Notes: generated from the letters alone by a model not told the origin. A DNA stretch of 64,000 nucleotides from Escherichia coli (GCF_024223415.1 NZ_CP100501.1); one strand, 5' to 3'; counted from the first letter of the stretch, positions 45,891-46,136 are shown. Program-made: numbers and translations.

Positions 45891-46136
45891 TCACCTGCGT
45901 CGCGCCGGCTGCCAGGTAAACGTGTTCTCTGCGGCACGATACGCTTTTGTTCGTTGAGCCTTTGCGGTTCTCGCTTTGCGCTCTGCCCGAATCATTCTCA
46001 AAACTTTTACACGCACTTTTCTCTTAACTTCCCGTGGCAGTTCATCCCTGCCGGACAACTTTAACTGTGCAGCCTGTGCGGCATAAGCATCGTTGATACG
46101 CTTACGTTCTGCTTCCGTCAGTTTCATCCAAGACAT
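45891..46136 (-). CDS. Hypothetical small basic protein
   Basis: 81-aa Lys/Arg-rich ORF with AGGAGG RBS directly upstream. Confidence 0.45.
   Translation of the reverse strand: MSWMKLTEAERKRINDAYAAQAAQLKLSGRDELPREVKRKVRVKVLRMIRAERKARTAKAQRTKAYRAAENTFTWQPARRR

Follow-up and report, generated by a model that had tools for sequence, protein, structure and literature searches.

An 81-codon gene among insertion sequences in an Escherichia coli plasmid belongs to an unnamed protein family of ColE1-type small plasmids

The question raised by a short open reading frame (ORF) lying among insertion sequences (IS) in a 64,000-nucleotide stretch of Escherichia coli DNA (GCF_024223415.1; NZ_CP100501.1; the whole stretch is referred to as the window) is whether it is a gene and, if so, where it came from and what its product might do. 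The ORF was identified by ORF calling and annotation at 45891 to 46136, stop codon included, on the minus strand, with an ATG start codon at 46136. It encodes a basic, predicted helical protein of 81 amino acids (aa) identical to RefSeq WP_045148228.1, "hypothetical protein", and the gene is thus already in RefSeq under that description. An earlier interpretation made from the DNA alone (the sequence-only reading) had pointed to an ORF at this position, giving no strand, and had proposed a real gene for a nucleic-acid-binding protein. The combined explanation preferred here, which is considered rather probable, is that a real small-plasmid gene survives in the window as a relic, and that its product would be a YjbD-like protein that binds nucleic acid.

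A conserved gene and its product

Several chance ORFs of 82–134 aa overlap the IS elements adjacent to the ORF in the window, and a length of 81 codons could by itself be due to chance here. The ORF is raised above chance because it is conserved, with the frame intact in all relatives compared and a pairwise ratio of non-synonymous to synonymous divergence (dN/dS) of 0.09–0.35 among eight homologous coding sequences (CDSs), all eight of which have exactly 81 codons; dS reached ~3, i.e. saturation. The frame and a length of ~81 codons are also maintained in homologues down to 36% identity. On these sequence comparisons, the ORF is well supported as a real protein-coding gene under purifying selection.

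A Shine-Dalgarno (SD) sequence, AGGAGG, is located at 46141–46146 on the minus strand, 4 nt (AATT) before the ATG, and a purine-rich GGAG-type SD is found at the equivalent position in nearly all homologues. The sequence-only reading had described this site as ideally spaced; the site is present, but its 4-nt spacer, though usable, is slightly below the textbook optimum. A scan of 45800–46300 found no promoter or terminator consensus. This result, together with the lack of any domain match and the ease with which the region yields ORFs of such length by chance, could be taken to mean that the ORF is no gene and arose by chance, or that the conserved element is a non-coding one (an origin or antisense RNA, for instance). 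However, the low dN/dS with saturated synonymous sites, the retention of frame and length to 36% identity, the conserved ribosome-binding site and the absence of any Rfam family matching the gene all argue otherwise. The dN/dS values and the alignment of invariant residues effectively refute the non-coding view, which retains a negligible probability.

Homologues are abundant. Protein searches recovered relatives at 69–98% identity on small contigs, and an exhaustive hidden Markov model (HMM) search recovered 17 representatives at the 50% identity level. A profile search extended the family to at least 103 clusters at 90% identity, all annotated "hypothetical protein" and none with a Pfam domain, nearly all of them on contigs of 1–15 kb from E. 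coli, Salmonella, Klebsiella, Enterobacter, Xenorhabdus and Obesumbacterium. When PLSDB was searched with tblastn using the window protein and a subfamily-C sequence as queries, 440 and 485 plasmids, respectively, were found to carry a family member, i.e. ~0.6–0.7% of PLSDB plasmids. These carriers are mostly mobilizable Klebsiella ColRNAI plasmids of 10–12 kb, and all copies are annotated as hypothetical. A further tblastn search of PLSDB with the distant member P0011 returned nothing, probably due to low-complexity masking of this Ala-rich query. The sequence-only reading had named a lack of conservation in related sequences as the outcome that would count against a gene; the opposite was decisively found, with purifying selection and ~81 codons kept across at least 103 protein clusters and ~440–485 sequenced plasmids.

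Carriers include CloDF13, pColD-type plasmids, Klebsiella ColRNAI plasmids and cryptic plasmids with only rop, and they bear RNAI, rop and a pUC-like origin. The family therefore belongs to the backbone of the ColE1-superfamily small plasmids of Enterobacterales. Neither Pfam nor NCBIfam was found to have a model for it, and it is not mentioned in the literature searched, which covered the RefSeq accessions, mbeE, NikA on small plasmids, colicin-divergent ORFs, YjbD/DUF3811 and pColD; the family is thus unnamed and the gene undescribed in those sources.

The window protein has 24 Lys or Arg residues in 81 (29.6%), a net charge of +16, a pI of 11.6 and an expected mass of ~9.6 kDa (9.48 kDa without Met), and the pI is at least 10.2 in every family member examined. 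Its basic character had been noted before, though as about a quarter Lys/Arg, when the fraction is nearer 30%. An AlphaFold2 (AF2) model with a mean predicted local distance difference test (pLDDT) score of 82 places a helix at residues 8–24, a ten-residue loop ending at the invariant Pro34, a long helix at residues 35–72 and a flexible tail of lower confidence. In an alignment of 12 diverse members, E10, A17, P34, R42, L46, E70, F73, W75 and R79–R81 are invariant, while positions 54–69 vary in sequence and length and are prone to insertions and deletions. The C-terminus carries the invariant motif E-x-T-F-x-W-(2–5 residues)-RRR-COOH. The modelled architecture would comprise an N-terminal helical hairpin (residues 8–53), a variable helical linker (54–69) and a conserved C-terminal tail.

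Searches with the window protein against Pfam, NCBIfam, PHROGs and PADLOC returned nothing or noise, a sequence-profile search of the PDB gave a single match with an E-value of 0.9, and Foldseek against the PDB gave nothing at E<3, which is unsurprising for so simple a helical hairpin. Of the checks proposed in the sequence-only reading, homology revealed a widespread family, and structure prediction gave a helical hairpin with no informative structural neighbour. Nucleic-acid binding is plausible from the composition of the protein. Our committed guess, held at about even confidence, is a cytoplasmic nucleic-acid-binding factor, in which RNA or DNA would be bound by the basic side of helix 2 together with the aromatic/arginine tail and the bound factor would modulate expression or maintenance functions of the home plasmid. 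By the same kind of guess, the protein would not be an enzyme, a toxin or a membrane protein.

Gene contexts of the relatives and candidate roles

The genetic context of the gene was examined in the relatives (loci designated by L numbers), and three contexts were found to recur: divergent from bacteriocin operons under SOS control, beside rop together with an orphan IncI-type origin of transfer (oriT), and after the relaxase gene mbeA. In the CloDF13-like and E. coli/Salmonella subfamilies (~40–55% identity), the gene and the principal toxin gene of the plasmid are divergently oriented and 127–330 bp apart. The toxin is cloacin DF13 in L024, a Klebsiella cloacin-like bacteriocin with a tRNase domain in L025, pesticin in L026, colicin D in L030 and L043, a pore-forming colicin in L031–L033, a Gly-rich bacteriocin in L019 and a 681-aa lipase-family protein (coordinates 479–2524) in L044 (pRHB15-C23_4). 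The copy in CloDF13 is at 3446–3691 in NC_002119 (WP_021515249.1). An alignment of the intergenic regions placed the LexA-box colicin promoter at the toxin side and the conserved ribosome-binding site of the family gene at the other.

As a divergent small gene is a classic arrangement for a regulator, and as this siting recurs with seven unrelated toxins, the gene could be a regulator of the bacteriocin module, back-to-back with the SOS promoter, that tunes expression, timing or survival of the producer; the window copy would then have lost its target. However, the closest relatives (69–88% identity) are beside rop and oriT and not divergent from a bacteriocin promoter, other members lie after mbeA or on large plasmids with no bacteriocin nearby, and ColE1 has a colicin but no family homologue. 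Plasmids of 4–10 kb also place everything near everything, the colicin promoter region is known to move as one conserved unit, and no LexA box is present near the window gene. A bacteriocin regulator is thus regarded as unlikely. SOS regulation of the window copy itself was considered and dropped, as no credible LexA box was found near the gene in the window.

On some family-bearing ColE1-type plasmids, the bacteriocin slot is occupied by unusual toxin-like cargo. This includes the lipase-family protein of L044, a trio encoding PAAR, S-type-pyocin-domain and DUF6392 proteins (L004; coordinates 2058–4719) and a gene for a 249-aa protein with a phage-lysozyme domain (L002; coordinates 59–808).

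In the close relatives (69–88% identity), an IncI-complex-type oriT is found within ~150 bp of the gene; this oriT comprises a GGGACAGGATATG nick region, a long inverted repeat and CCTGGTCAGGGC..GCCCCGACACC. The IncK oriT that precedes nikA in the window and the oriT of a 55-kb IncI-like plasmid (L028) share the architecture of this orphan oriT. The gene follows the oriT in L002, L004, L009 and L010 and in the distant relative L018, i.e. it is in the position of nikA; L005 and L006 show another orientation of the gene with respect to oriT. Neither NikA nor a relaxase is encoded by the small plasmids carrying the orphan oriT and the gene, and no Mob remnants were found in L002, L004–L010 or the window. 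No oriT adjacency was seen in the window, CloDF13, pColD or pesticin plasmids. In the metagenomic plasmids L012–L017, the gene starts 16 bp after a gene for an MbeA-type relaxase.

The individual oriT sites are at 63–150 in L004, ~2300–2380 (minus strand) in L002, upstream of 1256 in L018, 3640–3700 in L006 and ~930–960 in L005, and the L004 site shares 89% identity over 94 bp with that of the 55-kb IncI-like conjugative plasmid L028. In the window, the IncK/IncI-type oriT is at 39984–40092, with the GGGACAGGATGTG nick region, the inverted repeat TAATCGTATA...TATACGATTA and then CCTGGTCAGGGCTTAGCCCCGACACC; nikA starts at 40093 and nikB is at 40436–43138. Relaxase-less ColE1-type plasmids that are typed as "non-mobilizable" and have an IncI-type oriT are probably mobilised in trans. 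The simple rule that this oriT always accompanies the gene was rejected, as hundreds of plasmids have the oriT but lack the gene, and the gene is also found where that oriT is missing.

These contexts raise the possibility of an accessory role in conjugative mobilisation, either as an oriT/relaxosome factor that replaces NikA or as a protein recognised by the coupling protein via its Arg-rich C-terminus. Type IV secretion signals include positively charged C-termini, which counts in favour of such a role, as do the nikA position after the IncI-type oriT in L002, L004, L009, L010 and L018, the lack of both NikA and a relaxase in those plasmids, and the location 16 bp after mbeA in L012–L017. 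There is also a precedent in pCERC7, NTP16 and pU302S, which carry only nikA and an R64-like oriT (PMC9282650).

However, no signature of a ribbon-helix-helix (RHH), NikA or MobC protein is present. The window protein did not match the NikA-like model PF21983 or the MobC model PF05713, whereas the true MbeC/NikA-like neighbours in L012 and L031 do match these models. A cryptic RHH protein, a possibility prompted by the K-L-T-x-x-E...G-L pattern, was supported by neither Pfam nor the AF2 monomer and tandem-dimer models. No beta-strand was predicted in either model, including residues 1–7 of the monomer, and the low-confidence tandem-dimer model, with a predicted template modelling (pTM) score of 0.39, had no confident interface and no beta-ribbon. 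The orientation relative to oriT varies (L005 and L006), many plasmids of 2.7–3.3 kb have this type of oriT but lack the gene, in CloDF13, pColD and pesticin plasmids the gene is distant from the oriT of the plasmid itself, and the chromosomal relative YjbD is unlinked to conjugation. A role in mobilisation is thus distinctly unlikely.

The rop gene adjoins the family gene in all close relatives and is usually divergent from it, though in a Salmonella contig (L005) the gene is co-directional with rop and 30 bp downstream of it, an operon-like arrangement. This adjacency, together with the helical-hairpin architecture and a helix rich in Arg, Lys and Ala, would suit a partner of Rop in copy-number control through RNA I and RNA II, acting as an RNA-binding helical hairpin. 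However, rop is kilobases away in CloDF13-like and pColD-type plasmids, the two genes are mostly divergent and not co-transcribed, and residues 54–69, which most resemble an arginine-rich RNA-binding helix, are the least conserved part of the protein. There is no similarity to Rop: the window protein did not match PF01815, and the true rop genes are separate neighbours. A partnership with Rop is therefore considered very unlikely.

Other neighbours were found in particular lineages. In F-like plasmids of Enterobacter, members are beside a yefM-yoeB toxin-antitoxin pair and a truncated traM, and some members are on plasmids with a gene for a ProQ-domain protein. In the E. marmotae plasmid, an Rfam traJ-II match (43.6 bits; gathering score 40) was detected ~125 bp downstream of the gene (L004, 582–664, plus strand, equivalent to L001, 3306–3388, minus strand), which could be a structured RNA or an oriT-like hairpin. 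A structured RNA linked to the family was dropped as a candidate, since no carrier other than the E. marmotae plasmid has this match downstream of the gene. The possibility that the family corresponds to ColE1 MbeE was likewise rejected, as tblastn of eight members against ColE1 gave only noise (E>=0.85) located elsewhere on the plasmid, and the region of ColE1 downstream of mbeA that ends at nt 3940 (3734–3940) contains no ORF of 40 aa or more.

The window copy and its origin

The sequence on either side of the gene was compared with that of the small plasmids. A block of ~315 bp (45877–46191, minus strand) matches the E. marmotae plasmid pRHBSTW-00814_4 and the E. coli plasmid pcolRNA2, both ColE1-type, with 85–87% DNA identity. 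This block consists of the CDS, ~55 bp upstream and ~14 bp downstream, and is all that survives of the donor. On the downstream side, a truncated IS1414 (IS256 family; 45343–45879, minus strand), identified from matches to IS1414 and from the transposase N-terminus at 45343–45804, ends 12–14 bp past the stop codon, and the native downstream sequence has been replaced. On the upstream side, the sequence beyond –55 is unrelated AT-rich DNA. The distal part (46192–46263) of the 127-bp 5' flank between the ATG and IS2 (46137–46263, minus strand), defined by flank comparison, is unrelated to the small-plasmid upstream region and has no recognisable sigma-70 promoter.

The IS2 itself is at 46264–47594 with its transposase genes on the minus strand. 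It has the 1331-bp length and the ends of IS2 (TGGATTTGCCCC... and ...GGGGGCCAGTCTA), and is flanked by a 5-bp target-site duplication, AAGAG, at 46259–46263 and 47595–47599. The insertion is proven because the corresponding empty site, with a single AAGAG, is present in plasmid pTB-nb2 (L003), where the uninterrupted sequence reads ...GGGAAAGAG/TAAGGAACTT... The sequence-only reading had placed this IS2, with its AAGAG duplication, about 125 bp upstream of the ORF, in good agreement with the 127 bp measured here. A different IS2 was found in pTB-nb2 (at ~6528), 63 bp further upstream than the IS2 at 46264 in the window. Two independent IS2 insertions 63 bp apart in the same AT-rich stretch of sister plasmids suggest a local target hot spot for IS2. 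The ~1.6 kb of AT-rich DNA beyond IS2 (47600–49180) was continuous with the 5' flank prior to the insertion; it contains no convincing ORF, and only 25 PLSDB records cover at least 80% of it.

In the region compared, the window matches pCh101, an IncK2/Z plasmid of the MOBP and MPF_I types, which shares 99.4% identity over a 501-base query and has the same gene order around the gene. The gene is ~3 kb beyond nikB-pemIK, amid IS26, IS3-family, IS1414 and IS2 sequences. The exact allele (at least 99.7% identity) was found in 13 of 5,426 complete E. coli genomes, mostly from chicken or chicken-meat isolates and always on large plasmids; all 14 E. coli matches were on plasmids and none on a chromosome. 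Elsewhere, the alleles encoding P0005 and P0013, from E. coli and metagenome contigs, are interrupted by IS3-family insertions that create fusion ORFs, suggesting that the gene is dispensable, or can be lost without penalty, in some hosts.

From these boundaries, we infer that the window copy is an orphaned relic of a ColE1-type small plasmid. A piece of ~315 bp carrying only the gene would have been taken up into the IS mosaic of a conjugative plasmid of the IncK2/Z type, and co-residence with cointegration is a likely route because the closest donor plasmids carry an IncI-complex-type oriT. The piece would then have been trimmed by IS1414 on one side, the other side being a junction with the unrelated AT-rich DNA into which IS2 would later have inserted. 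The usual neighbours, namely rop, the orphan oriT and the bacteriocin promoters, are all missing beside the window copy. As no candidate target is adjacent and no promoter is evident, this copy is most likely a passenger, and it is probably functionless.

Several other features were noted in the window. A PemI/MazE-PemK/MazF toxin-antitoxin pair (43174–43799) is located directly after nikB, at the edge of the IS mosaic. A perfect LexA-box-like palindrome, CTGTGTATATATACAG, is at 23303–23318, ~300 bp upstream of a 323-aa ORF (23628–24599) that may belong to the plasmid leading region. Gathering-level Rfam matches were obtained for the sok antitoxin RNA of hok/sok (58936–59092), an AgrB antisense RNA (55817–55904) and ALIL pseudoknots, the frameshift signals of IS3-family elements (6132–6218, 44391–44477 and 50042–50158).

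YjbD and other known systems

A possible relative outside the small plasmids was found in YjbD, the product of the chromosomal E. coli K-12 gene b4023 in the rluF-lysC locus, present also in other Enterobacteriaceae. Four of 12 family members matched the YjbD family model, PF11656 (DUF3811), all below the curated gathering threshold of 23.5 bits; the best, P0011, scored 23.1 bits over its full length. When 22 family sequences were aligned with 63 YjbD sequences using hhalign, columns 4–77 of the family were collinear with columns 9–82 of YjbD over 70 columns, with a program-reported probability of 79% and an E-value of 1.5e-5. The C-termini can be compared directly: the 90-aa YjbD of E. coli K-12 ends in ...EASFSWSANTSTRGRR, a Xenorhabdus member in ...EKTFSWSASVGNRRR and the window protein in ...ENTFTWQPARRR. 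These comparisons make remote homology likely, and the family is probably a distant, diverged plasmid paralogue of YjbD. In the literature searched, YjbD was mentioned only incidentally, and no solved structure and no assigned function were found for it.

Several points weigh against the combined explanation given at the outset. No promoter is recognisable upstream in the window (45800–46300), so that this copy may not be expressed. The window protein itself did not match PF11656 at E<=10, the profile-profile probability is only 79%, and it falls to 39% when a single YjbD sequence is used. Because YjbD has no known function, the link also provides no mechanistic explanation. No DNA- or RNA-binding domain or fold was matched in the domain-model, PDB-profile or Foldseek searches, the invariant C-terminal tail is equally compatible with a motif for protein-protein docking, and the repeated occurrence of the gene next to bacteriocin promoters, oriT or mbeA suggests roles of a more specific kind.

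The tie to DUF3811 and the recurrent gene contexts are new observations that reveal no function. A bolder synthesis, which is quite unlikely, would have small ColE1-type plasmids use a YjbD paralogue as a dedicated regulator, either of an SOS-inducible bacteriocin or toxin operon or as a factor with a non-NikA fold that licenses the orphan IncI-type oriT for a helper NikB; if true, it would also offer a first clue to the function of yjbD, the orphan gene of the chromosome. For the present, the result mainly tidies annotation, as a hypothetical protein is recognised as a stranded member of a widespread, unnamed small-plasmid family. If the role of the family were worked out, a conserved backbone gene of bacteriocin plasmids would gain a function, yjbD of E. 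coli might gain one too, and the movement of relaxase-less small plasmids with IncI-type oriTs by IncI or IncK helpers could be explained.

Among known proteins, YjbD is like the family in being basic and 80–90 aa long, in its [ST]-F-[ST]-W...R-(G/R)-R-R-COOH end, in the (K/R)-h-T-x-x-E start of the N-terminal helix and the E-R-E/ER core in helix 2, and in being collinear along its whole length at ~20% identity, but it is encoded in the chromosome at rluF-lysC, whereas the family is plasmid-borne. Like NikA of R64, MbeC of ColE1 and MobC, the family proteins are small and basic, and their genes can occupy a nikA-like position after an IncI-type oriT; unlike these, they have no corresponding sequence signature and no predicted beta-ribbon, and their linkage to oriT is inconsistent. 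In L012–L017, the family gene takes the slot directly after mbeA that is occupied in ColE1 by mbeE, the final mob-region gene, although ColE1 has no family homologue anywhere. Rop/Rom (PF01815) is likewise a small helical-hairpin protein of ColE1-type plasmids, often encoded by the adjacent gene, but it is a symmetric hairpin of 63 aa, whereas the family has helices of unequal length (17 and 38 residues), is highly basic, ends in a conserved unstructured tail and is unrelated in sequence. A further comparison is with the CloDF13 ORF and its Klebsiella ColRNAI orthologues (e.g. WP_032440458.1), which belong to the same family, with 53–54% identity, the same length of 81 aa and the same motifs, and are also annotated as hypothetical. 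Whereas the window copy stands without native neighbours, these copies are carried by a ColE1-type RNAI replicon, where they are divergent from the SOS promoter of the cloacin or cloacin-like bacteriocin and precede genes K and L or tolA/tonB-like genes.
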